Shown here piece after piece: positions 4,279 through 64,000 of a stretch of DNA of 64,000 bases. This DNA is from Myxococcales bacterium. Lineage in GTDB: Bacteria; Myxococcota_A; Polyangia; Polyangiales; Polyangiaceae. Location: NCBI GenBank assembly GCA_016720545.1, contig JADKKK010000003.1, positions 537,516 to 601,515 on the forward strand. The letters run 5' to 3'. The position numbers and the translations under genes are program-made. Within the stretch, counting starts at the first letter, position 1, and every line of letters begins with the position of its first letter. Below the pieces are notes generated by a model that saw nothing but the letters and a program-made list of their open reading frames with translations, ran no database searches and was not told the origin of the DNA.

Positions 4279-4740
4279 TCAACCCCGGACGCGACCCGCC
4301 CACGGCTTGGCGCGGAGGTGGGCGACGAGCGCGCCGAGGTCGAGCTGCTCGACGGCCTCACCCTCGAAGATCACCGCGCCGCCGCCGGCAGCTTCGTCGA
4401 AGTGGCCTACCGCGACGACCTCCACGCCCGAGAGGCCGAGCCGCTCACCCTCGTGCAGGCAAATCAGGAGCGGGCGCGAGGCGGCGGTGGCGGCGCGGTC
4501 CACCACGGGTGGGCGGGTCGACCTGTGGCGCGCCCCGCAGCCCAAATCCAACACCGGGACGAGCGCGCCGGAGACCGCCGCGACGCCTACGAGGGGGAGT
4601 GTCCCACCGACGACCGGCGTCGTCTTGGGCATGGGCGCGAGCGCCTCGATGGACGCGACGCCAACGAAGGCGCGCACGTCCCCGTGGTCTCCGCGGTGCC
4701 GCACCACGACGCCACCCTGCCTCGCTCCCATGGAAGACAC
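4279..4740 (-). CDS. hypothetical protein (weak call)
   Basis: The 153-aa minus ORF has a protein-like composition (hydrophobic stretches, LICLHEGERLGLSGVEVVAVGHFDE). It sits in an otherwise unexplained 800-bp gap. The antisense plus-frame ORFs there are Arg-rich junk. Codon-position GC cannot separate the frames. Confidence 0.25.
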   Translation of the reverse strand: MSSMGARQGGVVVRHRGDHGDVRAFVGVASIEALAPMPKTTPVVGGTLPLVGVAAVSGALVPVLDLGCGARHRSTRPPVVDRAATAASRPLLICLHEGERLGLSGVEVVAVGHFDEAAGGGAVIFEGEAVEQLDLGALVAHLRAKPWAGRVRG

Positions 4741-4970
4741 GGTACCGCGAGTCGCCGCGCGCGCCCACGCGAAGGCGCTCGTCGCGCTCTACGGGGGCAC
4801 GGAGAACGCCGAATCCCAGGGGGTTTCAGAGGTTTCGGATCGCCTCGCGCGCTGGCTCTGCCCGCGCCACTGGCGCGCCAACCCGGGCCGCGCGAAATCG
4901 TCGGACCCGCGACTGGACCCGTGCTCTAGACTCAGCGCGCGATGCGCGAACCCGACCTCACGGGGGTGGC

Positions 4971-6338
4971 ATGAGCCGCTCCTCCACGACGCTCCCCGCG
5001 CGGGAGTCGGTGCTTGTCACTGGCGGCCGGGTCGTCACCTGCGATCCGGACGATCGCGTCGTCGACGGCGACGTCCTGATCGAGGACGGGCGCATCACCG
5101 CGATAGGCCCCGACGCCCTGTCGAAGCGCTCGCGCCCGGGCCTCGTTCGGGTGCTCGACGCCTCGGGCTGCGCCGTGCTCCCGGGCTTCGTGCAGCCGCA
5201 CATCCACCTCTGTCAGACGCTCTTCCGCGGCATGGCGGACGACCTGCCGCTCCTCGATTGGCTTCGCGAGCGCGTGTGGCCGCTCGAGGCCGCGCACGAC
5301 GAGCGCTCACTGGCCGCCAGCGCCGAGCTCGGCCTGCTCGAGCTCGTCCTCGGTGGGACGACGACCCTCCTCGACATGGGCACTGTGAGCGGCCACGACG
5401 CCGTGTTCGACGCGTGCGCGCGGAGCGGCCTCCGCGTGTTCTCGGGCAAGGCCATGATGGACTCCGGCGCGGGCGTGCCGAAGGGCCTCCGCGAGACGAC
5501 CCGCCGGAGCCTCGACGAGAGCGACGCGCTCTTCGCCCGCTGGGACGGCGCGGCGGAAGGGCGGCTCCGTTACGCCTACGCCCCGCGCTTCATTCTCTCG
5601 TGCACCGAGGGCCTCTTCCGGGGGGTGGTGGAGCGCGCGCGCGAGAACGGCGCGAAGCTCCACAGCCACGCGGCGGAGCACCCAGGGGAGCGCCGCGCCG
5701 TGCGCGAGCTGCTGGGACAGGACGACGTGGATGTGCTTGAATCTTATGGGTTTTGCGGCGAGAACACGCTCCTCGCCCACGGCGTCCAGCTCACGAAGGC
5801 GCAGGAGCGCCGCGCCGCCAAGCTGGGCACGCGCTTCATCCACTGCCCCAGCTCGAACCTGAAGCTCGGCTCCGGCATCGCGCGGGTGGCCGATCTGCTC
5901 GCGTCGGGAGTGAAGGTCGGGCTCGCCGCCGACGGCGCTCCCTGCACGAACAACCTCGACGCCTTCACCGAGCTCCGCCACGCCGCCCTGCTGGCCAAGA
6001 CACGCTCGGGCACGACCAGCCTCCCGGCGCGGCACGCGCTGCGCCTCGCGACCGTGCTCGGCGCGGAGGCCCTCGGCATCGCGGATCAGGTGGGCTCGCT
6101 GGAGCCCGGTAAGCGCGCCGATCTCCAGGTGGTGCGCGTCGACGGGCCCCACGTGGAGCCGGGCGGCGACGTGTTCTCTCGCCTCGTGTACGCGTGCCGC
6201 TCGAGCGACATCGTGCATGTGCTCGTCGACGGTCGCCTGCTCGTCAAGCTGGGCGAGTCGCGAGTGTACGACCGTGAGCGCGTGACCCGCGTCGCTCGCG
6301 TCCAGGGCGACGCGGTCCGCGCCAGAGCAGGCCTGTAG
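4971..6338 (+). CDS. amidohydrolase, MtaD/SAH-deaminase-like (metal-dependent hydrolase superfamily)
   Basis: MSRSSTTLPARESVLVTGGRVVTCD..DGRITAIG..LPGFVQPHIHLCQTLFRG is the HxH metal-binding start typical of MTA/SAH deaminase and guanine-deaminase-like enzymes. The track ORF 4182-6338 carries a 263-aa Arg-rich artefactual extension; the true ATG is at 4971. Confidence 0.8.
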   Translation: MSRSSTTLPARESVLVTGGRVVTCDPDDRVVDGDVLIEDGRITAIGPDALSKRSRPGLVRVLDASGCAVLPGFVQPHIHLCQTLFRGMADDLPLLDWLRERVWPLEAAHDERSLAASAELGLLELVLGGTTTLLDMGTVSGHDAVFDACARSGLRVFSGKAMMDSGAGVPKGLRETTRRSLDESDALFARWDGAAEGRLRYAYAPRFILSCTEGLFRGVVERARENGAKLHSHAAEHPGERRAVRELLGQDDVDVLESYGFCGENTLLAHGVQLTKAQERRAAKLGTRFIHCPSSNLKLGSGIARVADLLASGVKVGLAADGAPCTNNLDAFTELRHAALLAKTRSGTTSLPARHALRLATVLGAEALGIADQVGSLEPGKRADLQVVRVDGPHVEPGGDVFSRLVYACRSSDIVHVLVDGRLLVKLGESRVYDRERVTRVARVQGDAVRARAGL

Positions 6339-10347: not shown

Positions 10348-11757
10348 TCAGAGCGGTCTGCCGAGGGCGGCGAGCTCTTCGTAGAGGTACACGTTCGCGG
10401 CCACGGTCTTGCGGTACACGCCGAGGTGCATCGACTCGTTCGGCCCGTGCGCGCCGGTCTCGGGGTCGATGACCCCGTTCAGGATGAGCGGGAGGGTGGA
10501 GAAGCGCTCGCCGAAGAGCGCGACGAACGGGATCGAGCCGCCGATGCCGATGCGGAGCGGGGCGCGCCCCCACGCCTTCGTGTACGCGCGATCGGCCGCG
10601 TCGAACGCGCGCCCCTCGGCGACGTAGTCCCACGAGGCCGACGCCGCGGGCAGACGGCGGACCTCCACGGCGAGGCCACCCGGCACGTCGCGCCCGAGCT
10701 CCGCCGACACGAGCGCGAGGAGCTCGTCGCCGGTCTGGCCAGGCGCGACGCGCAAGCTGAGCTTGGCCGACGCGCGGGCGCGGATGGCGTTCTTCTCGGT
10801 GCCCGGCGCGGGGAACGTGGTCGAGAGCACGGTCACCGCGGGCTGGCGCCACGCCCACGCCGCGGGGCTGAGGCCCTTCGCCGGGAGCGGCTCGACGCCC
10901 TCGCGGAGGCGCGCGCCGACCCGGATGACCTCCGGCGTGAGCGGCACGTCCCACGAGCTGGCGAGCCAGCCGGGCTCGATGTCCTTCCGACCGAAGCGCA
11001 GGCGGCCGTCCTCGTCGACCAGGCGAGCGAGCAGCGCGACGAGCGTCACCGCGGGGTCGGGCACGATGTTGCCCCAGAGCCCCGAGTGCACGTCGCTCTT
11101 TGCGCTGGCGAGCTCCACCTCGACCTCCAGCAGACCCCGGAGGCTCACGGTGATCCCCGGGAGGTCGAGGCTGGGGTTCTCGCAGTCGGTGAGGACCATC
11201 GCGTCGGCCCCGAAGGCGTCGGGGTAGGCGTCCATGAAGCGCGCGAGGTTCGGGCTCCCGATCTCCTCCTCGCCCTCGATGAGGAGCTTGACGTTGCAGG
11301 GGAGCGCGCCGGTCTCGCCGAGCCACGCCTCCATCGCGAGCAGGTGGCTTAGCCAGCCGCCCATGTCGTCGGCCGAGCCACGCCCGTAGAGGCGATCGCC
11401 CTTGCGCACGAGGGTGTGAGGGGGCGTGTCCCACGCCTCGCCCGCGACAGGCTGCACGTCGAAGTGCCCGTACACGAGGATCGTCGGCTTGCTGGGTCCG
11501 GCGCCCATCCACTCCGCGGCGACGCAGGGGAGCGCGTCGGGGAGCTCGAGCACCCTCGCGCGGCTCATGCCGAGGGCGCCGAGGTCGGCCACGAGCACAC
11601 GCGCCAGCTCGAGCACGTGCGGGGCACGCGACGGATCGCTCGAGATGGGCGCGAACGACAGATAGCGGTCGAGCCGAGAGAGCGAGCCCTCGACGGCCTG
11701 CTCGGCGCGCGCGGCGACGCGGACCGCGGGGGATTCGTGGGCGGGGGTCGTGCTCAT
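10348..11757 (-). CDS. M20 family metallopeptidase (dipeptidase/ArgE-DapE-like)
   Basis: GHFDVQPV...GRGSADDMGG...LLIEGEEEIGS are M20 zinc-ligand and catalytic motifs. The track ORF start at 12195 is trimmed to the ATG at 11757 (MSTTPAHE), because the upstream extension is Arg/Pro junk overlapping pdxH. Confidence 0.8.
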   Translation of the reverse strand: MSTTPAHESPAVRVAARAEQAVEGSLSRLDRYLSFAPISSDPSRAPHVLELARVLVADLGALGMSRARVLELPDALPCVAAEWMGAGPSKPTILVYGHFDVQPVAGEAWDTPPHTLVRKGDRLYGRGSADDMGGWLSHLLAMEAWLGETGALPCNVKLLIEGEEEIGSPNLARFMDAYPDAFGADAMVLTDCENPSLDLPGITVSLRGLLEVEVELASAKSDVHSGLWGNIVPDPAVTLVALLARLVDEDGRLRFGRKDIEPGWLASSWDVPLTPEVIRVGARLREGVEPLPAKGLSPAAWAWRQPAVTVLSTTFPAPGTEKNAIRARASAKLSLRVAPGQTGDELLALVSAELGRDVPGGLAVEVRRLPAASASWDYVAEGRAFDAADRAYTKAWGRAPLRIGIGGSIPFVALFGERFSTLPLILNGVIDPETGAHGPNESMHLGVYRKTVAANVYLYEELAALGRPL

Positions 11758-11828
11758 GGTTCGCCGCGTAGCACATCGAGCGACGCCGGGCCTCGCTCGA
11801 TCGCGTCTCAGGTCTGGCGACGAACCGC

Positions 11829-12539
11829 TCAGGGGGAGAGGCGCACGCGGGTCCACGCGCCGTCGGGGCCGCGGGTGTAGCGCACGCGGTCGTGGAGGCG
11901 GCTCGCGCGGCCCTGCCACAGCTCGACCTGCGTGGGCACGACGCGGAAGCCGCCCCAGCCGTCGGGGAGCGGCACCGGTCCGCCCTCGAAGCGCGCCGTC
12001 ACCTCGGCCATCTTGGCCTCGAGCTCGTCGCGCGACGCCAGCACGGCGCTCTGCCGTGACGCCCAGGCGCCGAGCTGGCTCTGGCGCGGGCGCGTGCGGA
12101 AGTACTCCCCCGACTCCTCCCGCGACACGCGCTCGGCGCGCCCCCTCACGCGGACCTGGCGCATCGCCCCGAGCCAGTCGAACACGAGGGCGCACGCCGG
12201 GTCGCGCGCGAGCTCACGCGCCTTGCCGCTCTCGTAGCTGGTATAGAAGACAAATCCCCTTTCATCTCGTGCTTTTAGCAGCACGATCCGGGCCTCGGGG
12301 CCGGCCTCTCCCAGGGTGGCGAGGGTCATCGCGTTGGGCTCGGGGAGGCCCGCCGCGAGGGCCTCGCCGAGCCACACGTCGAACGCGACGAGCGGGCACT
12401 CCGGCAGGGTCGCGGGGTCGATGCCGTGATCGCCGTACTCTTCCCGCAGCGCCGCGAGGGCGACGGGATCCACGCGCGTCGACGAGGGCGTCGAGGGCGA
12501 GGGCGAGGGCGAGGGCGAGGGGCGCGACGAGGGCGGCAT
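11829..12539 (-). CDS. pdxH: pyridoxamine 5'-phosphate oxidase
   Basis: RIVLLKARDERGFVFYTSYESGKARELARDPACALVFDW..RQVRVRG..ESGEYFRTRPRQSQLGAWASRQS...GWGGFRVVPTQVELWQGRASRLHDRVRY aligns along its full length to PdxH. There is an N-terminal (SP)6 extension. ATG at 12539; 12581 or 12620 are possible alternatives. Confidence 0.85.
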   Translation of the reverse strand: MPPSSRPSPSPSPSPSTPSSTRVDPVALAALREEYGDHGIDPATLPECPLVAFDVWLGEALAAGLPEPNAMTLATLGEAGPEARIVLLKARDERGFVFYTSYESGKARELARDPACALVFDWLGAMRQVRVRGRAERVSREESGEYFRTRPRQSQLGAWASRQSAVLASRDELEAKMAEVTARFEGGPVPLPDGWGGFRVVPTQVELWQGRASRLHDRVRYTRGPDGAWTRVRLSP

Positions 12540-12618
12540 CCGCGCGAGGTTACCAGCGGCGGAGCTTCGGGTAGGATGCATTCCGAGGGGTCCGCTGGGG
12601 CCCTTGCGGGAGCGCACC

Positions 12619-14604
12619 ATGACCCACTCGGCGGACACCCCCCCACGCAGCGAGCCGCAAGCGGGCGGCGCGAGCCTCGCGCCCATCGACCCGCCGCGCC
12701 TCTACGACGAGATGAACCGCCTCGCCGAGCGGCTGCTCGAGCTGCCCCACGGCGCGAAGGCCGGGCGCCCGCACCCGCTGCTCGTGTCGCTGCTCCGCGA
12801 CGGGGCGATGGTCGTGTACGTGCCCGCCCGCGTGTGGGACGACGCGCGCTCGCTCGTCGCGCCGTTCGCGCAGCGGTGCGCCGAGGGCACCGCGCTCCTC
12901 GTGCTCGTCGGGCGGCCCCGCTTGCGCGACTACACGCGGGCGAGCGGCCTCGGCATCTCCACGGTGCTCCCCGAAGACGCCTGCCGCGAGGAGCTGGAGA
13001 TCGCGACTGACCGCGCGTTCGAACTGCTCGAGGCGAAGGGCCACGCCGAGAGCCGCGCCGCCTCTCTGTCGCGCTTTCGCTTCGAGACCGACGAGCTCGT
13101 CGACATCGCGCGGGCCATGACCACCGAGCGCGACGTCGACAAGCTGCTCGGTCTCATCCTGCAGAAGAGCCGCTTCGTCACCGGCGCCGACGCGGGCAGC
13201 ATCTACGTCGTGGAGAACGAGGGGGAGACCCTCCGCTTCAAGCTCTCTCAGAACGACAGCATCTCGTTCGACTCGCGCGAGTTCACGATGCCCCTCTCGA
13301 ACCGCTCCATCGCGGGCGCCGCGGCCGTCGAGAAGCGCGCGATCATGATCGAGGACGTGTACGCGCTGCCCCCGTCGTCCACGTTCGCCTTCGACCGCCG
13401 CTTCGACGAGAAGATCGGGTACCGCACGAAGAGCATGATGACCGTGCCGCTCATCTCGCAGCGCGGCGAGGTGCTGGGGGTCATCCAGCTCATCAACAAG
13501 AAGCGCGATCCCCGGGCGAAGGTCGTGGGCGACGACGCCGTGGCGCTCCAGGTGGTGCCCTTCGACGAGCGCAGCGCCGAGCTGCTCGGGCTCGTGGCCG
13601 CGCAGGCGGGCATCTCGCTCGAGACGGCCACGCTCTACCAGGAGATCCAGGCGCTGTTCGAGGGGTTCGTGGGCGCGAGCGTCGAGGCCATCGAGTCGCG
13701 CGATCCGACCACCAGCGGTCACTCGCGTCGCGTCGCGAACCTCACCGTGGCGCTCGCCAAGGCGGTCGACCGCACGGCGAGCGGCCCCTACGCCGCGGCG
13801 ACCTTCGGCCGGGAAGACCTCCGCGAGCTCGAGTACGCCAGTTTACTTCATGATTTCGGAAAGATAGGGGTACGCGAGAGCGTGCTCGTGAAGGCGAAGA
13901 AGCTCTTCGACGAGCGACTCGAGCTCATCCGCGCGCGCTTCGATTTCGTGGCGCGCTCCATCGAGACCGACATCCTCTCGCGCAAGCTGCAGGCGGTGGA
14001 GCGCCAGGCCCCGCTGTCGGAGCTGCGGGCGCTCGACGACGAGCTCACCCGGCGGATCCGCGCGCTCGACGAGTCGATGCAGACCATCCTCGCCGCGAAC
14101 GAGCCCACCGTGCTCGCGGCGGGCGACTTCGCGAAGATCGAGGCGCTCGCGAAAGAGTGGTACCTCGACCTCCGGGGTGAGACCCGCCTCTTGCTCGAGC
14201 CCGACGAGGTCACGGCCCTGTCGGTGAAGAAGGGCTCGCTCACCCCGGTCGAGTACGACGAGATCACCCAGCACGTGACCCACACGTTCCGCTTCCTCTC
14301 GCGCATCCCGTGGGGCAAGGCGCTGCGGCGCGTGCCGCACATCGCGGGGGCGCACCACGAGCGCGTGAACGGCACGGGGTACCCGAACCGCCTGCGCTCG
14401 GAGGAGATCCCCGTGCAGTCGAAGATGATGAGCGTCACCGACATCTTCGACGCCCTGACGGCGAGCGATCGCCCCTACAAGAAGGCCGTTCCGCTCGAGC
14501 GCGCGATCGACATCCTCGAGTACTCGGTGAAGGACGGCCACGTCGACGGCGACCTCGTGCGCATCTTCAAAGAGGCGCGCTGCTGGGAGGCGACACGGCC
14601 GTGA
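12619..14604 (+). CDS. GAF domain / HD-GYP domain protein (putative c-di-GMP phosphodiesterase)
   Basis: Central GAF-like region, then an HD-GYP domain: HSRRV..LLHDFGKIGV...HHERVNGTGYP. Divergent from pdxH. The alternative start at 12604 adds 5 aa. Confidence 0.85.
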   Translation: MTHSADTPPRSEPQAGGASLAPIDPPRLYDEMNRLAERLLELPHGAKAGRPHPLLVSLLRDGAMVVYVPARVWDDARSLVAPFAQRCAEGTALLVLVGRPRLRDYTRASGLGISTVLPEDACREELEIATDRAFELLEAKGHAESRAASLSRFRFETDELVDIARAMTTERDVDKLLGLILQKSRFVTGADAGSIYVVENEGETLRFKLSQNDSISFDSREFTMPLSNRSIAGAAAVEKRAIMIEDVYALPPSSTFAFDRRFDEKIGYRTKSMMTVPLISQRGEVLGVIQLINKKRDPRAKVVGDDAVALQVVPFDERSAELLGLVAAQAGISLETATLYQEIQALFEGFVGASVEAIESRDPTTSGHSRRVANLTVALAKAVDRTASGPYAAATFGREDLRELEYASLLHDFGKIGVRESVLVKAKKLFDERLELIRARFDFVARSIETDILSRKLQAVERQAPLSELRALDDELTRRIRALDESMQTILAANEPTVLAAGDFAKIEALAKEWYLDLRGETRLLLEPDEVTALSVKKGSLTPVEYDEITQHVTHTFRFLSRIPWGKALRRVPHIAGAHHERVNGTGYPNRLRSEEIPVQSKMMSVTDIFDALTASDRPYKKAVPLERAIDILEYSVKDGHVDGDLVRIFKEARCWEATRP

Positions 14605-24816: not shown

Positions 24817-25233
24817 TCAGTCGTGAGAGTGCGCCGCGTCGGTGGCGGCGTCCGCCTGGGGCTTCGCGTCGGTCGCGGCGTCGCCCGAGCCCGCGTCGGC
24901 GGTCACCGGCGGCGCGGCCTTGCAGAGCGCGAGGCAGGAGTCCTTCTTCGCCACGCACGCCTCGTCGCTCGTCGCCGACTCCGCCGCTTCGTGGCACTCG
25001 TGGATCTGCCCGGTGCCCGGATCGACCGGGTGGCAGGCGTCGATGATGGCGAGGCACGTGGCGAACGAGGTCGTCCCGTGGGAGTGATCGTCCGAGCACC
25101 CCGCCCCGACGACGAGGGCCATGGTCGCGAGGGCGGAGGCGAAGAGCAGGGAGCGCAGGGAGCGCAGGGAGCGCAGGGAGCGCAGGGAGCGCAGGGAGCG
25201 CAGGGAGAACGAGGCGAGCGACGGCGACTTCAT
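24817..25233 (-). CDS. Cys/His-rich lipoprotein (putative metal-binding), with SLR-repeat signal peptide
   Basis: MKSPSLASFSLRSLRSLRSLRSLRSLRSLLFASALATMALVVGAGCSDDHSHG... The mature part has 9 Cys and HxH/CH pairs (IDACHP, HECHEAA, DAAHSHD). Confidence 0.5.
   Translation of the reverse strand: MKSPSLASFSLRSLRSLRSLRSLRSLRSLLFASALATMALVVGAGCSDDHSHGTTSFATCLAIIDACHPVDPGTGQIHECHEAAESATSDEACVAKKDSCLALCKAAPPVTADAGSGDAATDAKPQADAATDAAHSHD
25145..25210. repeat. 9-bp tandem repeat (AGCGCAGGG x7) inside the signal-peptide coding region
   Basis: Perfect tandem copies. On the minus strand they encode (SLR)n. Confidence 0.85.
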
Positions 25234-31180: not shown

Positions 31181-33124
31181 ATGGGCTCCTCGACGTCGCG
31201 ACGCGCCGCCCGTGCGGTCGCCGTGGTCGGCGCGCTCGCCGCGTGTGCGGCGTGTGCGGCGTGCGGCAGAGGCGCGCGCGACGCACGGCCGGTGTACGCG
31301 ACGGCCAGCACGATGGAGGCGACGCTCGCCTTCGAGGAGCTGCGCGACGCGTGGGAGCGGCGCGACGTAGGCGCCGACCGTCAGCGCGAGGCGCTCGAGC
31401 GGCACCTCAAGCGCTTCCCGGGGGACGGGACGGCGACCACGGCGCAGCTCTACCTCGCGTTCCTGCTCATGCAGGCGGGCGAATATTACAAGGCCGACGC
31501 GCTGCTCGCGCTCCTCGAGTCGAACCCCAGGGCCCTGCGCGCCGGCCCGGAGCGCGACATGTTCGCCGTGGCGCGGGCCAAGTCGCTGCGGCACCGCGGC
31601 GCCCACCCGCAGGCGCTCGCGCTGCTCCAGCCGCTCGCCGGCAAGGCCGTCGACGAGACCCTCCGCGGCATCTTCCTCGAAGAGCTCTGCCTCGCGGCGC
31701 TCGGCGCTGGCGAGGACTACGAGGCGATCGGCTACATGGACGCCTGGCTGCGCGGGGTGTCCGAGGACAAGCGCGTCGCGAGCCGCGCGAAGATCGCAGC
31801 CGGCCTCGAGGGCATGCCGGCCGGCGTGCTCCAGGCCACCTACCGCGCCATGCGCACGGCCCAGCAGACCGGCTACAGCGCGGAGATCCAGCGCCTGGTC
31901 GCGATGAGGGTCGCCGCGATCGTCGTCCAGAACGAGGACGCGACGCTCGCGCGATGGCTCCTCGACGTGACGCCCGGGGGATCCGACGCGCTCGGCGACT
32001 CGGGCCCCACGATCCTCGAGCTCGCCGCGAGCCGACGAGGCCTCCGCGAGGTGCAGGGCCGCACCGTCGGCCTCTTGCTCTCCACGGGCGACGCGGAGCG
32101 CCGAGAGGCCGCCGCCGCCGTGCTCCGCGGGGTCTCTTGGGCCCTCGAGCTCCCGAAGGCGCCGGCGGCGCGCACCGACCCGCTCCGCCTCGTGGTGCGG
32201 ACCGACGCGAGCGAGGGCAAGGGGTTGGCCTCCGACCTGGCGATGGAGGAGCTCTTCGGCGAGGGCGCCGGGGTGGTGCTCGCCGGCCTCGATGGGCGCT
32301 CGGCCGACCACGCGCTCAAGTGGGGCGAGGACCACGGCCTCCCGGTCGTTCTCCTGCATCCCCCCGCGCGCCAGCCAGTCCCCACCCAGGCGGGCTACGT
32401 GATCGGCGAAGCGCGGGCGACGCAGGCCGCCATGCTCGCGCGCGCGCTGGCCCCGCTCGGCGATCGGCGGGTGCAGCTGCTCACCACCTCGCGGGGGAAG
32501 GGCCGCGACGCGCTCGAGGCGGCCCTGGCGCTCGGCGGACTCGGCAGGGCACGTGAGACGGTCGACTGCGACGCCGAGGCGCCGCGCCCGGGCATGCCGC
32601 GATTCCCCTTCGAGGCCTGGGCGAAGGAGCGCGTCCGCACCTTCGTGGTCGCGGGCGCGAGGGAGTGCCTGACCGACACGCTGGCCGAAATCAAGCTCGC
32701 GACGCGTGGCGCCGCCGCCGGTCCAAGACCGCTCGTCGGCGTGGTGCTCGACACCGAGCCGCCCGCAGAGCCCTCCCCTGCCCCCGCGCCGCGGGTGTTC
32801 GCCGTCAGCGCGGGCATCCTGCCGCTCGAGCGGGACCGCGTCGCCGCCCTTGGTGATCCGGAGGTCGCTGCATATTACAACGAATTCGGTCAGGTGCCTG
32901 GGTGGTGGGCCGCGCTCGGGCGCGACGCGGGGATCCTCGCGCGCCAGGCCGTGAGCGTGCTGCCCTCGAACACCACGGCAGACCCCAAGGCGGTCGCCCA
33001 GCGCCACGCGATCGTCGCCGCCGCGCTCGGCCGAGCGCAGGCGCCTTTGTGGACCACCGAGGCCAGCGGCTTCGCGGGCCAGCGCGTGCTCTCGCGCTCA
33101 CTGCGGGTCGTGGAGCTGAAGTAG
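31181..33124 (+). CDS. secreted hypothetical protein
   Basis: Signal MGSSTSRRAARAVAVVGALAACAACAACG. 647 aa, Ala/Leu-rich, with TPR-like helical content likely. The start is trimmed from 30992. Divergent from sdhC. Confidence 0.55.
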   Translation: MGSSTSRRAARAVAVVGALAACAACAACGRGARDARPVYATASTMEATLAFEELRDAWERRDVGADRQREALERHLKRFPGDGTATTAQLYLAFLLMQAGEYYKADALLALLESNPRALRAGPERDMFAVARAKSLRHRGAHPQALALLQPLAGKAVDETLRGIFLEELCLAALGAGEDYEAIGYMDAWLRGVSEDKRVASRAKIAAGLEGMPAGVLQATYRAMRTAQQTGYSAEIQRLVAMRVAAIVVQNEDATLARWLLDVTPGGSDALGDSGPTILELAASRRGLREVQGRTVGLLLSTGDAERREAAAAVLRGVSWALELPKAPAARTDPLRLVVRTDASEGKGLASDLAMEELFGEGAGVVLAGLDGRSADHALKWGEDHGLPVVLLHPPARQPVPTQAGYVIGEARATQAAMLARALAPLGDRRVQLLTTSRGKGRDALEAALALGGLGRARETVDCDAEAPRPGMPRFPFEAWAKERVRTFVVAGARECLTDTLAEIKLATRGAAAGPRPLVGVVLDTEPPAEPSPAPAPRVFAVSAGILPLERDRVAALGDPEVAAYYNEFGQVPGWWAALGRDAGILARQAVSVLPSNTTADPKAVAQRHAIVAAALGRAQAPLWTTEASGFAGQRVLSRSLRVVELK

Positions 33125-33183
33125 ACGAGCTGACGTAGACGAGCTGACGTAGACGAGCTGACGTAGACGAGCTGACGTAGACG
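33121..33183. repeat. 14-bp tandem repeat GTAGACGAGCTGAC x4.6
   Basis: Perfect copies spanning the stop codon of the upstream gene. Every unit contains TAG and TGA. Confidence 0.85.
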
Positions 33184-33216
33184 AGGCGCGATCCTGGGGC
33201 CCAAGCCGTGACTGCG

Positions 33217-39439: not shown

Positions 39440-39453
39440 GGTGGTACCTTTCT

Positions 39454-39525
39454 CGTGTCGCTCGTGTCGCTCGTGTCGCTCGTGTCGCTCGTGTCGCTCG
39501 TGTCGCTCGTGTCGCTCGTGTCGCT
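39454..39525. repeat. 9-bp tandem repeat CTCGTGTCG x8 (CGACACGAG on the minus strand), immediately upstream of a start codon
   Basis: Eight perfect copies. They end 15 nt upstream of the ATG at 39439, in the divergent intergenic region shared with livK. Confidence 0.9.
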
Positions 39526-39663
39526 CGTCGTAGGGGTTCGCGGCGACGCGTGACCGCTTTGCGGCGGCGCTCGCGCACGGTCACGAGCAGCGTACGGGCG
39601 CCGAGGCGCCGCGGGGAACAAATCTCCACGGTTTCGTGGTACCCGTCCATGCCTGGAGGGATC

Positions 39664-52411: not shown

Positions 52412-53815
52412 TCAGTACCAGAGGCCCCAGGTCCAGTTCCAATCGTAGTAGTCGCGGGCCACGTCGAGGTTCACGCCCAGGCGAAACGGCACGGCCGAGT
52501 CCCACAGATGGAACACGTGGGACTCGAACACGTGGGCCTCGAGCCCCACTGTGGTGTGGAGTCGCGGGGACGACTGCGCGAAGCGCGTCGGCTCGAGGTA
52601 GGCGCCCGCGCGAAGCCAGAGCCAGTTCGGTAGGGCCTCGGTCTCGACGCCGAGGCGAGGCGTGAACGACGCGTGCCGCCCCGACCGATCGACCCGCTGC
52701 GCGAGGAACGACTCCATGCCCACCGCGTTGACCGTGGGACCGGTGATCATGAAAGAGGTCGTGAGGAGGAGCTTGGGGCGCGGGAAGCGCACGCGTCGCT
52801 GCTGCTCGTACCGGTTGATGAGCACCTGGCGCGTGTCGTCGGGCGACGTGCGAAAGCGCTCGAGCTCGGCCCGGGGGATGGTGCGCGGATCGAGCCAGCG
52901 AACGTTGAGCGGCCGCTCGCCGAGCTGCACGGCGACCCCCCACTCGAGCTCCCATGGGCGCTCGATGGCCCGCGGCAGGTACATGGCGCCTACGCGCAGA
53001 TCGCCCGCGGCGTCGGGCTCGATGTCGCTGCTCGTGGCCTTGCCGACGACGGGCGCGCGGGCGGCCGCCCCGACGCGGAGCTGGTGTGCCCTCGGCGCCC
53101 ACAAAAAGCCAAGCTCGGGGGCGAGGCCCGCCATGGTGAGGAGCCCCTCCGTGCCCGGCACGGCGGTAAGCTCGGACTGGCCAGAGTCGCGGAGCGTGAG
53201 CAGCGCGCCCCGCAGACCGAACCCTAGGTGCACCTCGTCGTCGAGGCTGTAGCCCGCCATCAAGTGAAGGGAGGCGAGGCGCACCGAGGCGCTCTTGATG
53301 ACGGGCGCGCCCCCAATGCGACCGAGCTCGTACTGCTGGACGTCGAGCGCGACCCCGATGCCGAGCGGGCCCTCTTGCACGTAGCCGCTCGTGGAGAGGA
53401 AGACGAAGTCGTTGTAGGCGAAGCCCTTGGTGCCGTTGTTGTCGAAGTCGGTCGTGCCGAGTTGGCTTGGGAAGCGCCACTCGATGCCGGCGTTCCAGTC
53501 GGTCACGGAGTGCGACGAGGGGTAGCGCACGGCCGGCGTCGCGGGGTTCGCGGTCATGATGTCCGCACCCGCCGCCAGCGCGACGACCGAGCCGCCGACC
53601 GCGGTGACGCGGGACGAGCCGATGAGCGGCCCCTGGAACAGGTCGATCGTGTAGCTGCTCGTCGTGATGGGCGAGCCCTGCGCGCCGAGCGGGCCGCCCG
53701 CGTGCGCAGGCGAGCCCACGAGCACCAGCAGCACCGCCAGCGCGAGCGCGGGCACGAGGCCGGACACGATGCGTGGTAGCGACCAGGTTCGCACGGCGAG
53801 CGCGGAAGATAGCAA
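52412..53815 (-). CDS. secreted/outer-membrane hypothetical protein (paralogue of 54088-55548)
   Basis: Signal VPALALAVLLVLVGSPAHA. Ends in aromatic GLWY. Shares blocks GPLG.QG.P..TS.YT.DLFQGPL..S.RVT, RGFAY.NF.F, LNV.WLD and PRLGVETEA with the downstream paralogue. Confidence 0.55.
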   Translation of the reverse strand: MLSSALAVRTWSLPRIVSGLVPALALAVLLVLVGSPAHAGGPLGAQGSPITTSSYTIDLFQGPLIGSSRVTAVGGSVVALAAGADIMTANPATPAVRYPSSHSVTDWNAGIEWRFPSQLGTTDFDNNGTKGFAYNDFVFLSTSGYVQEGPLGIGVALDVQQYELGRIGGAPVIKSASVRLASLHLMAGYSLDDEVHLGFGLRGALLTLRDSGQSELTAVPGTEGLLTMAGLAPELGFLWAPRAHQLRVGAAARAPVVGKATSSDIEPDAAGDLRVGAMYLPRAIERPWELEWGVAVQLGERPLNVRWLDPRTIPRAELERFRTSPDDTRQVLINRYEQQRRVRFPRPKLLLTTSFMITGPTVNAVGMESFLAQRVDRSGRHASFTPRLGVETEALPNWLWLRAGAYLEPTRFAQSSPRLHTTVGLEAHVFESHVFHLWDSAVPFRLGVNLDVARDYYDWNWTWGLWY

Positions 53816-54087: not shown

Positions 54088-55548
54088 CTAGTTCCAAATG
54101 CCCGCGGTCACGCTCCAGCCGAAGTACTCACGAGCGAAGTCGAGCGAGCCGCCGATGCGAAACGGCAGCGGGTCCTCGTAGAGGCCGAACACGTCGGAAG
54201 AGAAGGTCTTCAGGTCCATGCCGACGGTGCCGTGGAGTCGGCGCGCGCCGCCGCGAAATCGCGTGGGCTCGGAGTAGGTGCCGGCGCGAAACATCATGCG
54301 GTTTGGCCACGCCTCGGTCTCGACGCCCAGGCGCGGCGTGAGCGAGACCCGCTCGCCCGAGCGATCGATCTGCCCGGCGAGGAACGACTCGAGCCCTACG
54401 GCGTTCGCGACGGGGCCGGTCGCGGTGAACGAGATCGAGAGCAGGAGCTTCTCGCGCGGCAGCCGCTCGTAGGCGCGCCGCCCCATGCGCGAGACCACCG
54501 CGGAGCGCGGCTCGTCCGGGGTCTTTCGGTGCGACTCGACCACCTCGTGCTGCACCGCCGTCGAGTCGAGCCACTTCACGTTGAGCGGGCGCGGCCCGAG
54601 CTGCACCGCCACGCCCCACTCGATCTGCCAGGGCACCTCGACGCGGTCGGGGAGGTAGAGCTTGCCGAGCCGGCGATCGCCGGAGGCGTCGACCACGGTC
54701 GTGTCTCCGGGGATGAGCTGCCCGGCGACCGGCGCGCGCAGCGAGAGGCCCATGCGGAGCGGGAGCCGCAGCGGCGCCCACAGCGCGCCCACCTCGGGGC
54801 CGACGCCGGCCATGGTGAGCACGCCGCGCAGGTCGGTGATGCTCGAGAAGCCGATGCCCGAGAGCGCCGCGTCGCGGAGGGTGAACAGCACGCCGCGCAG
54901 GCCGCCGCCGATCGTGAGCTCGTCGCCCACGGCCGTGGCCGCGAGGAGCCGGGCCTGCACGAGGCGAAACGCCACGCTGGAGACGCCCTCCGCGCCGGTC
55001 GTCGCGCCGAGGTCGTACTGCTGCACATCGACCGTGGCGCCGAGCCCGAACGGCCCCTGCTGGACCTGCCCCGCCATCGTCACGAAGAAGAAGTTGTCGT
55101 AGGCGAAGCCGCGCTTGCCGTTGTTGTCGTAGTCGAGGTCGCGGATCCCGCCCGGGAGCGTGAGGCCCGCGCTGATGTCGAACTCGGTCACCGAGCGCGA
55201 CGACGCCGTGCGCACCGCGGGCGAGGCCGCGTTGAACGCGTGCATGTCGATGCCCTCCGCGAGCGGCGCGACGGCGCCGGCGAGGCCCGTGACGCGGTTC
55301 GACGCGGCGAGCGGCCCCTGGAACAGATCGACCGTGTAGCGGCTGGTGTCGAGCGGCGCGCCCTGCCGGCCGAGCGGCCCGGCGGCCTCCGCGGGGGTCA
55401 CCGCGAGCGTGACCAGCAGGGCGAACGCCTGGGAGGCCCACGTGCGCAGGCGCCCCCGCGCCCCACCTCGCGACCGGTGCGGGTCACCCCTTCCGATCCT
55501 CGCGCAGGGCACGCGCGAGTGCGCGCGGGCGGATCGGAGGCCTTCCAC
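54088..55548 (-). CDS. secreted/outer-membrane hypothetical protein (paralogue of 52412-53815)
   Basis: Signal ASQAFALLVTLAVTPAEA. The true start is probably internal to the track ORF. Ends in GIWN. The paralogy blocks are listed under the previous feature. Confidence 0.55.
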   Translation of the reverse strand: MEGLRSARAHSRVPCARIGRGDPHRSRGGARGRLRTWASQAFALLVTLAVTPAEAAGPLGRQGAPLDTSRYTVDLFQGPLAASNRVTGLAGAVAPLAEGIDMHAFNAASPAVRTASSRSVTEFDISAGLTLPGGIRDLDYDNNGKRGFAYDNFFFVTMAGQVQQGPFGLGATVDVQQYDLGATTGAEGVSSVAFRLVQARLLAATAVGDELTIGGGLRGVLFTLRDAALSGIGFSSITDLRGVLTMAGVGPEVGALWAPLRLPLRMGLSLRAPVAGQLIPGDTTVVDASGDRRLGKLYLPDRVEVPWQIEWGVAVQLGPRPLNVKWLDSTAVQHEVVESHRKTPDEPRSAVVSRMGRRAYERLPREKLLLSISFTATGPVANAVGLESFLAGQIDRSGERVSLTPRLGVETEAWPNRMMFRAGTYSEPTRFRGGARRLHGTVGMDLKTFSSDVFGLYEDPLPFRIGGSLDFAREYFGWSVTAGIWN

Positions 55549-55809: not shown

Positions 55810-57075
55810 ATGAAGAGAGCAGCAGGATCGTTGGCGTTCGTGTTGGCCGTGGCGGGTGTGGGCGTGCTGGGCGTCTTCTCGGTGCGCCCGGCCTACGCAC
55901 AGAGCGCAGATCCCGCGCCTACGACCACCGCGCCCGCCGCGACGACGCCGCCGCCCGCAGAGCCAGCCCCCGCAGAGCCAGCCGCGGCTCCAGCCGCCGC
56001 CGCTCCGGCCACGGGCCTGACGCTCAGCACGGGCGCCCCGAAGAAAGACGCGGCCACGCCGGCCAAGAAGGAAGAGCCGAAGAAGGCGAAGAAGCCGCGC
56101 CCGTTCGCCGGCACGCAGCTCTTCACGCAGGTCGCGACGGCGACCAGCACGTTCGCGGCGGGGCAGACGCAGTACCAGAACCCCACCACCGACATGACGC
56201 TGTTCTTCCTGCCGCGCTACGCGCTGTCGAAGGACTGGCAGATCCGCGCCCGCACGACCTTCACGTACGAGTTCACGAACAGCGACACCACCACGACGCG
56301 GAACGAGCCGCGCTTCGGCGACACGGGCCTCCAGCTGTTCTATCGGGGCATCCCGGCGTTCGCGGGGATCAAGCCTCAGGTCGCGGTCGGCCTCACGGCG
56401 CCCACCTCTCCCGAGTCGCGCGCGCGCACCATGATCGTGACTCCTGCGCTGACGGTGCAGCTCTTCAAGTCCTTCGAGCTGCCTCGTGAGGGCGAGCTCG
56501 ACGTCATCGGCTTCGCGACCTACTCGCACCCGCTCTACTCGAACACCACGGGCGGAATCCGCGGCGACTTCCCTTACAAGCGCGCCTGCTTCGGCGCGGG
56601 CGCGGGCTGCGACGATCAGCTCGGCGGCTCGGCGAACGCCTCCGACATCCTCTCCTGGTCGGCCATCGTGTCGGTGACCTATGGCAAGTTCAGCCCCGCG
56701 TTCTGGTTCAACCTCTCGCACCAGTTCCTCTACAAGTTCAGCCCCGAGAACGACGTCGACGCCACGCGCGGTCTGACAGCGCAGCGCCTCTCCGACCCGA
56801 CCACGGTCCGCAACGGCACGTACTTCAGCTTCTGGCTCGACTACGAGGCGAACTCGTGGCTCACGCCCGAAATCGGGTATTACATGGGCCGCAGCACCCT
56901 GCGGGCCGACGGCACCTTCGGCAACCCGTTCTTCGATCGCTACCAGGACATGCGCGTTTACCTCGGCGCGAACATCAACATCGACAACCTCGAGAAGGCG
57001 ATCGAGGGCGGCGAGGCCGAAGCCGGCGTCGTGCGCGCGAAGAACCGCACGGGCCCCGCGCTCGGCGCGTACTGA
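55810..57075 (+). CDS. secreted outer-membrane-like hypothetical protein
   Basis: Signal MKRAAGSLAFVLAVAGVGVLGVFSVRPAYA. Pro/Ala/Lys-rich linker, then a Tyr/Phe/Thr-rich beta-like region. The C-terminal residue is aromatic (ALGAY). It is the 3' part of track ORF 54232-57075. Confidence 0.5.
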   Translation: MKRAAGSLAFVLAVAGVGVLGVFSVRPAYAQSADPAPTTTAPAATTPPPAEPAPAEPAAAPAAAAPATGLTLSTGAPKKDAATPAKKEEPKKAKKPRPFAGTQLFTQVATATSTFAAGQTQYQNPTTDMTLFFLPRYALSKDWQIRARTTFTYEFTNSDTTTTRNEPRFGDTGLQLFYRGIPAFAGIKPQVAVGLTAPTSPESRARTMIVTPALTVQLFKSFELPREGELDVIGFATYSHPLYSNTTGGIRGDFPYKRACFGAGAGCDDQLGGSANASDILSWSAIVSVTYGKFSPAFWFNLSHQFLYKFSPENDVDATRGLTAQRLSDPTTVRNGTYFSFWLDYEANSWLTPEIGYYMGRSTLRADGTFGNPFFDRYQDMRVYLGANINIDNLEKAIEGGEAEAGVVRAKNRTGPALGAY

Positions 57076-57258: not shown

Positions 57259-58461
57259 ATGCGAGCTCTCCTCTACAGCGCGGCGTGCACCCTCGGACTT
57301 CTTTCGCTCGGGCTCGGCGCGTGCAGCGACGGGCCAACCAGCGCCCCCGGGAGCTCCGACGACTCGATCATCGGCGGCGTGGACGCGACCGGGGCCAAGC
57401 TGAACGCGATCGGCACGGTGGGCCACAAGGCGTTCGACGACACCTTCGACTACTTCTGCACGGCGACGCTCATCGCGCCGACGGTGGTGCTCACGGCCAA
57501 GCACTGCGCGGCCCGCGACCCGAAGAGCGGCCACACGATGCTCGACGAGGAGCCCATCTACTTTGCGGTGGGGCCCGACAGCACCAAGCCGCTGAAGACC
57601 GTCCGGGTGAAGAGCGTGCTCCTCGCGCCGGTGCACGACGCGGGCTTCGTCAGCCTCGGGTCGGACGTGGCGCTCTATTTCCTCGAGGCGCCCATCGACG
57701 ACATCACGCCGCTACGCGTCGACGGCGCGCTGCTCAGCGAGTCGAAGGTGGGCCAGAAGTTCACCGCCGTGGGCTTCGGCGTGCACGATCGGGAGCGCAA
57801 CTCGGGGCAGCGCAAGGCCGGGCAGCTCACCCTGCAAGGCGTGAGCGGCAAGCCGGTGCAGAGGGTGTTCCCCACCTACGAACAGTTCGCGGCGTTCATC
57901 GCGAAGCACGACGGCGAGGACTACGTAAAAGCGCAGGAAGAGCGCATGAAGAAGTTCTACGACCTCGAGCTCCTGAAGGGGTACGAGGCGTACCTCGGCC
58001 TTGGCGACAACGACGCGCAGCCGTGCAGCGGCGACTCTGGCGGGCCGCTGCTCGCGCGGGTGAAGGACGAGAACGTGGTCGTCGCGGTGGTCTCAGGGTC
58101 GTTCAAGGGCCGCACCTACCCCTGCAGCGTCGTCGGCGAGGTCTACGCCACCATCGGCCCGCGGGTGATCGATCTGCTCGACAGCGCCGCGCCCGAGTGC
58201 GCGGGCGTGCCGGTGTGGGGCACCTGCGACGCCACGAACAAAGTGGCCACTCGGTGCGTGTCGAAGAAGGAAGGTCCGCAGCGCGTGAACAAGATCGACT
58301 GCTCGGCGCTCGGGCAGGTGTGCAAGATCAACGCGGAGAACACGGCGTTCTGCGACGACCCCGAGGCGCCGCCGCCGCCGCCCCCGCCCCCGCCGGCCGA
58401 CGCGGGCCCCAGCGACGCGGGCCCCAGCGACGCGGGCCCCAGCGACGCGGGCCCGGGCTGA
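57259..58461 (+). CDS. S1 (trypsin-like) serine peptidase lipoprotein
   Basis: Lipobox LLSLGLGAC. Catalytic triad motifs TAKHC (His), DVAL (Asp region), GDSGGPL (Ser). C-terminal (PSDAG)3 tail. Confidence 0.8.
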   Translation: MRALLYSAACTLGLLSLGLGACSDGPTSAPGSSDDSIIGGVDATGAKLNAIGTVGHKAFDDTFDYFCTATLIAPTVVLTAKHCAARDPKSGHTMLDEEPIYFAVGPDSTKPLKTVRVKSVLLAPVHDAGFVSLGSDVALYFLEAPIDDITPLRVDGALLSESKVGQKFTAVGFGVHDRERNSGQRKAGQLTLQGVSGKPVQRVFPTYEQFAAFIAKHDGEDYVKAQEERMKKFYDLELLKGYEAYLGLGDNDAQPCSGDSGGPLLARVKDENVVVAVVSGSFKGRTYPCSVVGEVYATIGPRVIDLLDSAAPECAGVPVWGTCDATNKVATRCVSKKEGPQRVNKIDCSALGQVCKINAENTAFCDDPEAPPPPPPPPPADAGPSDAGPSDAGPSDAGPG

Positions 58462-60120: not shown

Positions 60121-60152
60121 CCTCACGGGCGTGCGCTCCGGCATCGCCACGC

Positions 60153-60196
60153 GGGTGCGCGCGTGCGCGGGTGCGCGGGTGCGCGGGTGCGCGGGT
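60153..60196. repeat. 8-bp tandem repeat GTGCGCGG x5, immediately upstream of a lipoprotein gene
   Basis: GTGCGCGC GTGCGCGG GTGCGCGG GTGCGCGG GTGCGCGG, ending 15 nt before the ATG at 60211. Confidence 0.85.
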
Positions 60197-60210
60197 GGTA
60201 GACTGGCTCC

Positions 60211-61449: not shown

Positions 61450-62394
61450 TCAGAGCGCCTTGAAGAAGTCCCACTGCACCTTCGCGGCCTGGGGCCATAT
61501 CTGGTGTCCCATGCCCTGAATAGGGCAGTAGATCGTGGGCTTTCCGGGCTTGCAGCCCGAATAGGCCTCGCACGGCGCCGAGGCGACCGCGCGCGTCCCC
61601 CCGCAGCCGTTCACGTAGGCCCAATACGCGGCGCTGAACTCGCCGCCGCTGGGCTGGACGGTGCCGTCCGCCAAGCCGTGGATGGCGAGGTACGGGACCG
61701 GCGCCTGGTTCGGGCAGTGTTGGAAGCCGTTGGGCCACTTGTCGTTGGGCGACTCGGGCTCGTAGGGCGCGCCCCCGGAGCTCGACGCGGCGCCACGCAG
61801 CAGCGCGCTCCGGCGGCACGCGAGCTGGTTGACGAAGAAGCCACCGTTGCTCCACCCGGACGCGAATACGCGCGCGCGATCGACGGCGACACGCCCCGCG
61901 AGCTGCGTGAGGATGGCCTCCACGAAGGCGATGTCCTTGTTGCGATCGGCGGGCGTGTAGAGGTCCCACGTGGCGCCCTCGCCGCTCGGGTACACCAAGA
62001 TCGCTGCGTCACCGCTGGCCTCTTGGAACTTGAAGTAACGATAGAGCGAGAAGCCGTCCTCGCCGTCGCCGTGGAAGACGAAGACGAGCGGAGTGGGCGT
62101 CCTCGGATCGTGGTTCTTCGGGAGTCGGAGCCCGTAGGTGCGCGAGCGCCCGGCGGCCGTGACCTGCTCGCGGCTCAAGAGGTCGGGCGGCGGCGCCTCC
62201 GCCTCGCGCGCGTCGGGCGGCGGCTCGGGAGCGCTGGCCGTCGCTGTGGCCGTCTCCGTGGCCGTCGGGGTCGGGGCGGGATCGCCGTCGAGCGTCGGCG
62301 CGGACGGGAGCGGCGCCGGCTTGGAGCACGCGACCGCGAAGAGCGCGACGGCGGCGGCGTGCGCGGGCCACACGAGCGGGCGGTGGACGCTCAC
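61450..62394 (-). CDS. PHB-depolymerase-family esterase (LpqC-like), lipoprotein
   Basis: AAAVALFAVACS lipobox. LVFVFHGDGEDG and the nucleophile motif FASGWSNGGFF. Confidence 0.7.
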   Translation of the reverse strand: MSVHRPLVWPAHAAAVALFAVACSKPAPLPSAPTLDGDPAPTPTATETATATASAPEPPPDAREAEAPPPDLLSREQVTAAGRSRTYGLRLPKNHDPRTPTPLVFVFHGDGEDGFSLYRYFKFQEASGDAAILVYPSGEGATWDLYTPADRNKDIAFVEAILTQLAGRVAVDRARVFASGWSNGGFFVNQLACRRSALLRGAASSSGGAPYEPESPNDKWPNGFQHCPNQAPVPYLAIHGLADGTVQPSGGEFSAAYWAYVNGCGGTRAVASAPCEAYSGCKPGKPTIYCPIQGMGHQIWPQAAKVQWDFFKAL

Positions 62395-63578
62395 GGGCAG
62401 GCCTCCGCCGCGCCGGCGGCTCGGTAGGGATCAGCGGGCGTCGTGTGCGGCGGCACACCTTGCCCGACCGCGGTGAGCGGGTAGCCGCGCCCAACGCCGC
62501 AGCGCCGGGTGAAGTCGTAGGTGTCGGTCGGCGCGTCGAGGCGCAGCACCGACATGTCGCGGTACACGAGCGGCTGCCCCGCCAGCACCCGATCGGGGAC
62601 GCCGCCTCGCACGATGAACGCAGAGCCCGTGGCCCCCTGCCGCAGCGCCCGGCCAACGCCGCGCTTGTCGATGAAGAGCGTCGTGCCCTCGTCCACCGCG
62701 ACGCCATAGACGCCGATGGGCGCGCCGGTGATGACGCCGTCGGCGACCTGCCGCGCCATGAACCCGGCGAGCCGCCCCATTCGGTCGCGCTCGGTGAAGT
62801 GGCTGTCGGTGATGGCCCGCGAGAGCGGCGGGAAGACGAGCATGTTCTGTGTAAAGTGCACAATTGGGTCGTAGGGGTTCGCGAGGAGGGTCTTCGACGT
62901 GATCGGCACCGTGCCCGCGAGCGTCGCGTCGTTCACGCTCGGGCCGAGAATGGCGGCGCCCGCGCTGGTGCCGCCGACCACCCCTCCGCGATCGTAGACC
63001 CCCTGCACGGCCTTCATGAGCGCGCTCCCCTTCCACGCCACGTAGTCGGCCTGATCGCCCCCCGCGAAGAAGACGAGCTCCGCCTTGTCGACGGCGGCCG
63101 CCACGTAGGCGAGATCGCGGGGCGGTGCGAGCGCCGGCACGACGAACGTCTGCACCGAGCTCCACGCCGCGAGGCCATCGAGGTAGGCGTCGTAGGCGTT
63201 GGCGCCCGTCGCCCGGAGGACCACCACGTCGCCGCCGCGCCCGGCGCTCCCGACGACGAGATCGTGAGCCGCCACGAACGCGGCGTCGACGTCGGCGCCA
63301 CCTCCGCCGAGCAGCAGGCCCGGGCCTTGGGGCGCGCGGGCGTCATCGATCGGGGAGCCTCGTCGCGGGTACTCCGTGAGCGTCAGGCCCGCGTCGGCCG
63401 CGGCGTCGGCCGCGGCATCGGGTGAGCTCGCGTCCACCGCTGGCGGCGTCGCGTCCGTCGGCGGGACGCTCGCGGTGGGGGCCGGCGGCGGGGCGGCGTC
63501 CTCGACGCCCGGCGTGGGCGGGGCGGTCGAGGTGCACGCGACGCAGAACGAAAGGATCGCGACGAGTCCGAAGCGCAT
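62391..63578 (-). CDS. S51-family peptidase (cyanophycinase/dipeptidase-E-like), lipoprotein
   Basis: ILSFCVACTS lipobox. GGTSAGAAILG nucleophile motif typical of the S51 family. A 4-bp overlap with the downstream gene's start. Confidence 0.7.
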   Translation of the reverse strand: MRFGLVAILSFCVACTSTAPPTPGVEDAAPPPAPTASVPPTDATPPAVDASSPDAAADAAADAGLTLTEYPRRGSPIDDARAPQGPGLLLGGGGADVDAAFVAAHDLVVGSAGRGGDVVVLRATGANAYDAYLDGLAAWSSVQTFVVPALAPPRDLAYVAAAVDKAELVFFAGGDQADYVAWKGSALMKAVQGVYDRGGVVGGTSAGAAILGPSVNDATLAGTVPITSKTLLANPYDPIVHFTQNMLVFPPLSRAITDSHFTERDRMGRLAGFMARQVADGVITGAPIGVYGVAVDEGTTLFIDKRGVGRALRQGATGSAFIVRGGVPDRVLAGQPLVYRDMSVLRLDAPTDTYDFTRRCGVGRGYPLTAVGQGVPPHTTPADPYRAAGAAEACP

Positions 63579-63596
63579 CGCGTCATGCTAGTCCCC

Positions 63597-63860
63597 GGGG
63601 GGGGGGGTCCCCCCCGGGGGGGGGGGGGCCGCCGCCCCCCCCCCGGGGGGGGGGGGGGGGGGCCGCGGGGGGGGGGGGGGGGGGGTGTGCGGGGGCGGGG
63701 GGGGGGCGCCCGGGGGGGCCACCCCCCCCCCCCCCCGCCCCCGGGGGGGGCGCCCCCCCCCCCCCGGGGGGGGGGGGGGGGGGGGGGGGGGGCGGCCCCG
63801 CCCCCGGGGGGGGGCCCCCCCCCCCCCCCCCGGCCCCGGAGGGGCGACCCGGGCCGGGAG
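63597..63860. repeat. ~265-bp block composed almost entirely of alternating long poly-G and poly-C runs, flanked by 10-bp inverted repeats
   Basis: Runs such as G11, C7, G13, C11, G20, G23 and C16, with very few A/T, then an A7 tract. Flanks GCTAGTCCCC (63587-63596) and GGGGACTAGC (63875-63884). It begins ~20 nt upstream of the S51 peptidase start codon. Confidence 0.8.
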
Positions 63861-64000
63861 AAAAAAAGACTCCAGGGGACTAGCAAATCAGCCGCTGCCA
63901 CGAGCGCGGCGACGGCGATCCGAGAACCATGCCCGCGAGGCGACCACCGAGCGCAGAGCCCCTCCCATGACCCTCAAAGTGAGCAACGAAGGGGCGGCGG

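Follow-up and report, generated by a model that had tools for sequence, protein, structure and literature searches.

A G/C-run tract beside an S51-like gene in a Polyangiaceae MAG is probably a mis-called consensus over an IS630-type MITE

The G/C tract and its neighbouring genes

The window, by which we mean the whole 64,000-nt stretch of DNA analysed, has a G+C content of 72%. Close to its end, a 395-aa S51-like ORF lies on the minus strand at 62391–63578. It matches PF03575 with 27.5 bits (cutoff 23.9), and its NCBI name is type 1 glutamine amidotransferase-like. The N-terminus of the predicted protein, MRFGLVAILSFCVAC, resembles a signal or lipoprotein sequence, and the gene product is probably a lipoprotein. 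The ATG of this ORF is located 9 nt from a CTAG at 63588–63591, and just upstream of this gene start, as the first-pass annotation had recorded, lies a tract of alternating G and C runs.

The tract itself occupies positions 63597–63850. Its 254 nt comprise 147 G, 101 C, 3 A and 3 T (248 G/C), and 14 of its G or C runs reach 7 nt or longer (G11, C7, G13, C10, G18, G19, G10, G7, C15, G8, C13, G27, G9 and C17), the longest being G27. The earlier description of near-pure G/C runs with almost no A/T was accurate, and a tract of about the given size (~265 bp) is present; more exactly, the G/C stretch measures 254 nt, and the segment that disagrees with sister assemblies measures 271 nt (63597–63867). 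On the side of the S51-like gene the tract is bracketed by GCTAGTCCCC (63587–63596), and on the other side by its reverse complement GGGGACTAGC (63875–63884), with an A7 run at 63861–63867; both 10-bp inverted repeats are as previously described. In the remaining ~63.7 kb of the window, runs of this length occur just three times, each time as C7, which bears out the remark that nothing else in the window is alike.

Several other features of the window were recorded. Short tandem repeats with 6–15-nt units in 4–9 copies, 95–100% perfect, are found at 25146–25207, 39452–39528, 33113–33185, 58398–58454, 60150–60197 and 12492–12521; examples are GCAGGGAGC (6.9 copies) and CTCGTGTCG (8.6 copies). 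Two adjacent paralogous genes on the minus strand (52415–53794 and 54091–55401) encode proteins of 460 and 437 aa that are ~49% identical and have no Pfam family on record. Neither tRNA genes nor any Rfam family were found in the window.

The same site in other assemblies

The locus was compared with eight other contigs from seven other datasets. These contigs, which represent several independent datasets, were found by exact-protein look-ups; the queries were the S51-like protein, the 314-aa protein next to it, and two close variants. Two MAGs belong to the same species: the flanks of the window are 99.7% identical over 11 kb to GCA_016704525.1 (L001/L007) and 99.6% identical over 12 kb to GCA_963852875.1 (L006). 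In both, an element of complex sequence, 303–304 nt long, lies between the same GCTAG...CTAGC. The counterpart of the whole feature at 63587–63884, which comprises the insertion site and the G...C that borders it in the GCTAGC target, is L001 9690–9992 (303 nt; it includes CTTCCAGGGGACTAG and CTAGTCCCCTGGAGTCGTGG), and the L006 counterpart measures 304 nt. Three short-read contigs from three other samples (L004, L008 and L132) begin 29, 48 and 54 nt inside the normal element, on the side of the S51-like gene. Three further contigs (L002, L003 and L131) have a precise empty site, ..GATTTGCTAGCATGACG.., with a single CTAG (GCTAGC), while the filled alleles carry CTAG on both sides.

G/C runs were seen at this locus in none of the eight other contigs, independent assemblies included; a MITE of normal sequence or an empty site was found instead. 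Sequence resembling the G/C runs of the window was not found either when a pattern matching the window was run against genome, metagenome and viral contig collections. The first-pass annotation had proposed a look at related genomes at the syntenic position, and sequence is indeed present there; its suggestion of a real G-quadruplex, i-motif or slippage structure in the promoter finds no support in that sequence.

Comparison with L001 places the disagreement within the feature precisely. Window 63868–64000 is 100% identical to L001 9574–9706, and on the other side identity resumes only at 63596. Counted from the CTAG, agreement between the window and its sister thus ends 16 nt into the element at 63868 and 9 nt into it at 63596. 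The 271 nt in between (63597–63867) are a G/C-run rendering of L001 9707–9982 (276 nt). Over 11 kb of flanks, the window and L001 differ by 27 substitutions and one 4-nt indel, and no differences in homopolymer length were seen.

The differences from L001 are clustered, with 6 substitutions in ~100 nt (62541–62643) and 10 in ~110 nt (56346–56457) against ~0.1% elsewhere, a distribution that points to tracts of recombination or to a consensus of mixed strains. In L006 (CAWKVH010000008.1), gene calls at 11180–13883 are shortened (234 aa vs 334, 144 vs 160), and 9 gap openings against the window were counted over 12 kb; this MAG probably carries uncorrected long-read indel errors. About 8 kb past the site, beyond the window end (L001 1–1515), lie a large multi-domain ketoacyl-synthase/FabA gene of 2276 aa that is PUFA-synthase-like by its domains, a phosphopantetheinyl transferase, and a Ser/Thr kinase that carries an FGE-sulfatase domain.

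An IS630-type MITE inserted at CTAG

In the sister assemblies, the element has a perfect 13-nt terminal inverted repeat, CTAGTCCCCTGGA, and imperfect inverted arms of ~95 nt. Its G+C content is 66%, and its predicted fold is a single long hairpin (-93 kcal/mol as single-stranded DNA, with z = -7.9 against shuffles). The ends of the element were described by the pair pattern CTAGTCCCC...GGGGACTAG. Comparing the empty with the filled alleles points to duplication of TA within CTAG, although the junctions by themselves fit a 4-bp CTAG duplication (IS5-like) equally well. CTAG is the classical target of IS630, with TA duplicated upon insertion. In the window, the CTAG that adjoins the S51-like gene (63588–63591) and a second copy at 63880–63883 would hold the two copies of the putative target-site duplication, at 63589–63590 and 63881–63882. 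The insertion site lies within a 137-bp divergent intergenic region between the S51-like gene and a neighbouring 503-aa gene.

The element was assigned to IS630 on the strength of a transposase. The JGI contig Ga0073904_10001518 (L117) contains a 1187-bp IS at 4427–5613 whose ends, CTAGTCCCCTGGAAGCGTGAT... and CTAGTCCCCTGGAAGCAAGAT..., are the same as those of the MITE. Its 363-aa ORF matches NF033545 (transpos_IS630) with 280.6 bits, well above the cutoff of 100, as well as Pfam DDE_3 and HTH_32. The MITE and a transposase-encoding IS of the IS630 family thus have their terminal inverted repeats in common, and this IS is a candidate autonomous partner of the MITE. At 295 bp, the MITE is too small to encode a 363-aa transposase. 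As the same ends occur on the IS and on MITEs, the 10-bp inverted repeats reported earlier are genuine transposon ends together with the CTAG target.

The element is present in many copies. Six further ones, 97–100% identical and with six different flanks, were found in two series of JGI samples; each is beside a CTAG and each is at a contig end. Contigs of other samples also break inside the element. The terminal repeat CTAGTCCCCTGGARNCGTG is widespread, with at least 119 stretches of JGI metagenome sequence (L012–L130) containing it. Among the matches listed, most of these repeats either end elements of a 166-bp MITE size class (for example L012 1750–1915) or fall within ~150 nt of a contig end. 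The many copies at contig ends imply that this MITE family breaks short-read assemblies. A 293-bp element of Tropicibacter sp. R15_0 (NZ_JAGHRD010000003.1; L005 4441–4733) has the same 14-nt ends and, like the six other copies, abuts CTAG; its interior is unrelated and of lower G+C content. These IS630-type ends therefore also occur in a bacterium that bears the name of another genus. A blastn search of the window with the true MITE returned no second copy.

Taken together, these sequence comparisons indicate that the organism carries at this site a non-autonomous IS630-family MITE of ~295 bp with a TA duplication in CTAG, and that wastewater Polyangiaceae populations are polymorphic for this insertion. 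This is a known kind of element, of which the copy at this site is new. As any promoter-proximal MITE insertion can, the real MITE may alter the expression of the adjacent S51-like gene. Little of the element is readable in the window, where agreement with the family is confined to 63868–63880 and 63591–63596. The former is one terminal inverted repeat, distal to the S51-like gene and called correctly (GTCCCCTGGAGTC on the minus strand); the same repeat ends the IS630-family IS and many MITEs. The latter, GTCCCC on the plus strand, is the surviving tip of the other terminal inverted repeat, and G runs stand in place of the rest of that repeat, which the sister assemblies give as TGGAAGCGTGAT.

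Collinearity with the true element and origin of the tract

The tract and the true element could be aligned end to end (298 vs 303 nt). The global alignment score was 4, compared with -56 ± 9.6 for 1000 permutations of run order, none of which reached 4; random pieces of genomic sequence scored -50 ± 14, with -4 as their maximum. The score of the tract lies 6 SD above the run-permuted controls. Local G-minus-C skew was correlated between the two sequences with r = 0.75, 0.83 and 0.86 in windows of 5, 9 and 15 nt, while circular shifts gave values of 0.29 or less. The lag profile of the positional correlation had its maximum at 0 and decayed near-symmetrically over ~5 nt. Of 87 columns with C in the true element, 75 remained C, and of 96 with G, 62 remained G. 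A and T gave way to whichever of G and C prevailed nearby: A became C in 22 cases and G in 18, and T became C in 27 and G in 11. The 14 A/T letters of the tract sit where the local A+T content of the true element is 50%, against 33% elsewhere, and a T7 run (A7 on the plus strand) overlies the T-rich GTGGTTCGTATCAG.

A non-biological transformation of the true sequence can account for the tract. When the true bases were replaced by the sign of the local skew, identity to the tract reached 76–78% (62 ± 3% in controls, with a maximum of 71%), and the run boundaries matched those of the tract over most of its length. Simple local-majority filters raised the identity from 53% to at most 73%, as against 78% for the skew-sign filter. 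A net plus-strand bias to G (78 changes to G vs 40 to C) falls outside the simple local-majority model, which is descriptive rather than exact. Two other transformations were tried and rejected: recoding purines as G and pyrimidines as C, as in transition hypermutation, predicted the tract worse than plain local G-C skew, and reads of the near-palindromic element in opposite orientation gave r = 0.07–0.11 with a regression weight of ~0.

With a probability that we put at roughly 93%, the G/C tract would not be a real feature; it would be a mis-called consensus over a real MITE. To judge from the sequence, it looks like a failure of consensus, basecalling or polishing, rather than the outcome of a mutational process or of dark-cycle poly-G reads. 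In the window's assembly, correct calls would be limited to the unique flanking sequence and to the terminal-repeat tips (16 nt and 9 nt, with the CTAG as starting point), and the 271-nt interior would have been replaced by a degenerate consensus that kept the length and the local balance of G versus C and lost all else. Each position would have been given the base that dominates locally, over about ±3–5 nt; in an element of 66% G+C, such local-majority smoothing yields alternating runs of G and C. If the consensus is mis-called, it follows that the tract has no biological function.

One alternative is that the interior is filler unrelated to the template, made up of Illumina no-signal (dark-cycle) poly-G reads or of junk gap-filling. 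The long G runs and the excess of G over C on the plus strand (147 vs 101) would suit such an origin, as would the position of the tract exactly where short-read assemblies break. However, on one strand both the run positions and the length of the tract follow the true element, as those of unrelated filler would not. Dark-cycle poly-G would consist of G-only runs, whereas 40% of the tract (101 of 254 bases) is made up of C runs, and these lie on C-rich parts of the true sequence, with which the tract shares its skew (r = 0.83). A keto/amino recoding, as expected from loss of one colour channel (A to C, T to G), explains the tract less well (r = 0.45–0.48) than does plain G-C skew (r = 0.61–0.65). 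The HiSeq X works with four-colour chemistry, in which an absent signal is not called as G. This is the instrument used by the probable source project, and dark-cycle poly-G is thereby disfavoured. We consider filler very improbable. The artefact put forward in the first-pass annotation is supported by the comparison of assemblies, with the exception of its version as unrelated poly-G.

The other alternative, that the tract is real DNA, we hold to be more improbable still. The interior of the MITE would have been rewritten in vivo to blocks of G and C homopolymers, or another MITE with the same ends and an interior of G/C runs would have inserted here, and the resulting sequence would form a G-quadruplex, i-motif or hairpin upstream of the gene. 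The only point in favour is that the tract is present in a deposited assembly with accurate-looking flanks. On the other side, ~47% substitutions, of all types and with G-to-C and C-to-G changes among them, would be needed within 271 nt alone in a lineage that is 0.3% diverged, and the length would have to be kept while each base shifted to the local majority. We know of no mutational process that acts in this way. All other data from the locus, with their normal MITE or empty site, and the failure of the pattern search to return a second such copy from the genome, metagenome and viral collections also speak against real DNA. If it were true, real G/C runs would require a template-tracking, homogenising mutational process of a new kind, 9 nt upstream of a gene. 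The real and artefactual readings had been called just as plausible as each other; the evidence now favours the artefact.

For the mis-called consensus, the most likely cause that we infer has two parts. Long-read signal or alignments would have been poor or mis-registered over a hairpin-forming, multi-copy, presence/absence-polymorphic element at low coverage, and subsequent polishing would have failed to repair the interior. The predicted hairpin of -93 kcal/mol, the many copies, the presence/absence polymorphism between strains and the low coverage make the element a plausible site for a collapse of the consensus and for failed short-read polishing. Such a failure is not systematic, since two other long-read MAGs read the element correctly, one of which belongs to the project suggested for the window.

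The 421-aa protein at 55810–57075 of the window is MBL0194473.1 (locus tag IPQ09_09690), and the style of accession and locus tag, which is the sole basis, suggests that the window MAG comes from the project of Singleton et al., 2021. In the pipeline of that project, R9.4.1 data were basecalled with Guppy flip-flop, assembled with CANU, and polished with Racon, twice with Medaka 0.6.5, and with Racon using HiSeq X reads (Singleton et al., 2021). A sister MAG, JADIZX, is listed there as AalW_18-Q3-R10-53_BAT3C.9, a Polyangiaceae, and its row in the supplement gives 13.3 and 15.0 in two coverage-like columns (Singleton et al., 2021), which we take as the Nanopore and Illumina coverage of JADIZX. 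As to the failing step, we infer only its class, that is, one of basecalling, CANU consensus, Medaka and Racon.

Biologically, the finding is minor, as an ordinary polymorphic IS630-type MITE lies beside a gene start. It serves rather as a warning that a deposited long-read MAG apparently includes 271 nt of 'hallucinated' consensus, to which inverted repeats and strong predicted folding still lend a structured look. Such a garbled tract is open to being mistaken for a G-quadruplex, an i-motif or a contingency locus. The same fault may affect further copies of the MITE in this MAG. For quality control, long-read assemblies of high G+C content and sequence sets used in model training could be screened for this signature: G/C runs enclosed by the terminal repeats of a mobile element, together with a conserved length and agreement in local skew with a sister genome.

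Nothing specific on such a poly-G or polishing artefact was found in a literature search. Several known systems resemble the tract in part. Phase-variable homopolymer tracts and promoter G-quadruplex elements share its position just upstream of a gene start, but those are single tracts that vary in length by strain, whereas the other strains here, rather than a length-variable tract, have no tract at all. Illumina two-colour poly-G artefacts likewise show long G runs without a biological counterpart; here, in contrast, the C runs are equally structured, the tract follows the underlying sequence and the probable project used four-colour chemistry. The element agrees with other IS630-family (Tc1/mariner-type) MITEs in its shared IS ends, TA-in-CTAG target, ~295-bp size, hairpin, multiple copies and presence/absence polymorphism, and the window copy differs from them in that only 16 + 9 nt of it are legible. 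Nanopore mis-calling offers a further comparison: inverted repeats speed up translocation through the nanopore and lead to incorrect and missed base calls (Spealman et al., 2020; PMC7229812). The published case concerns low-quality calls in reads at large inverted duplications, whereas the present one concerns a polished consensus with the appearance of G/C runs and a presumed nanopore cause. In both, a strong inverted repeat is the site of the errors, which here do not extend beyond it, and the low-pass blur of the tract fits the reported faster translocation, with fewer samples per base.
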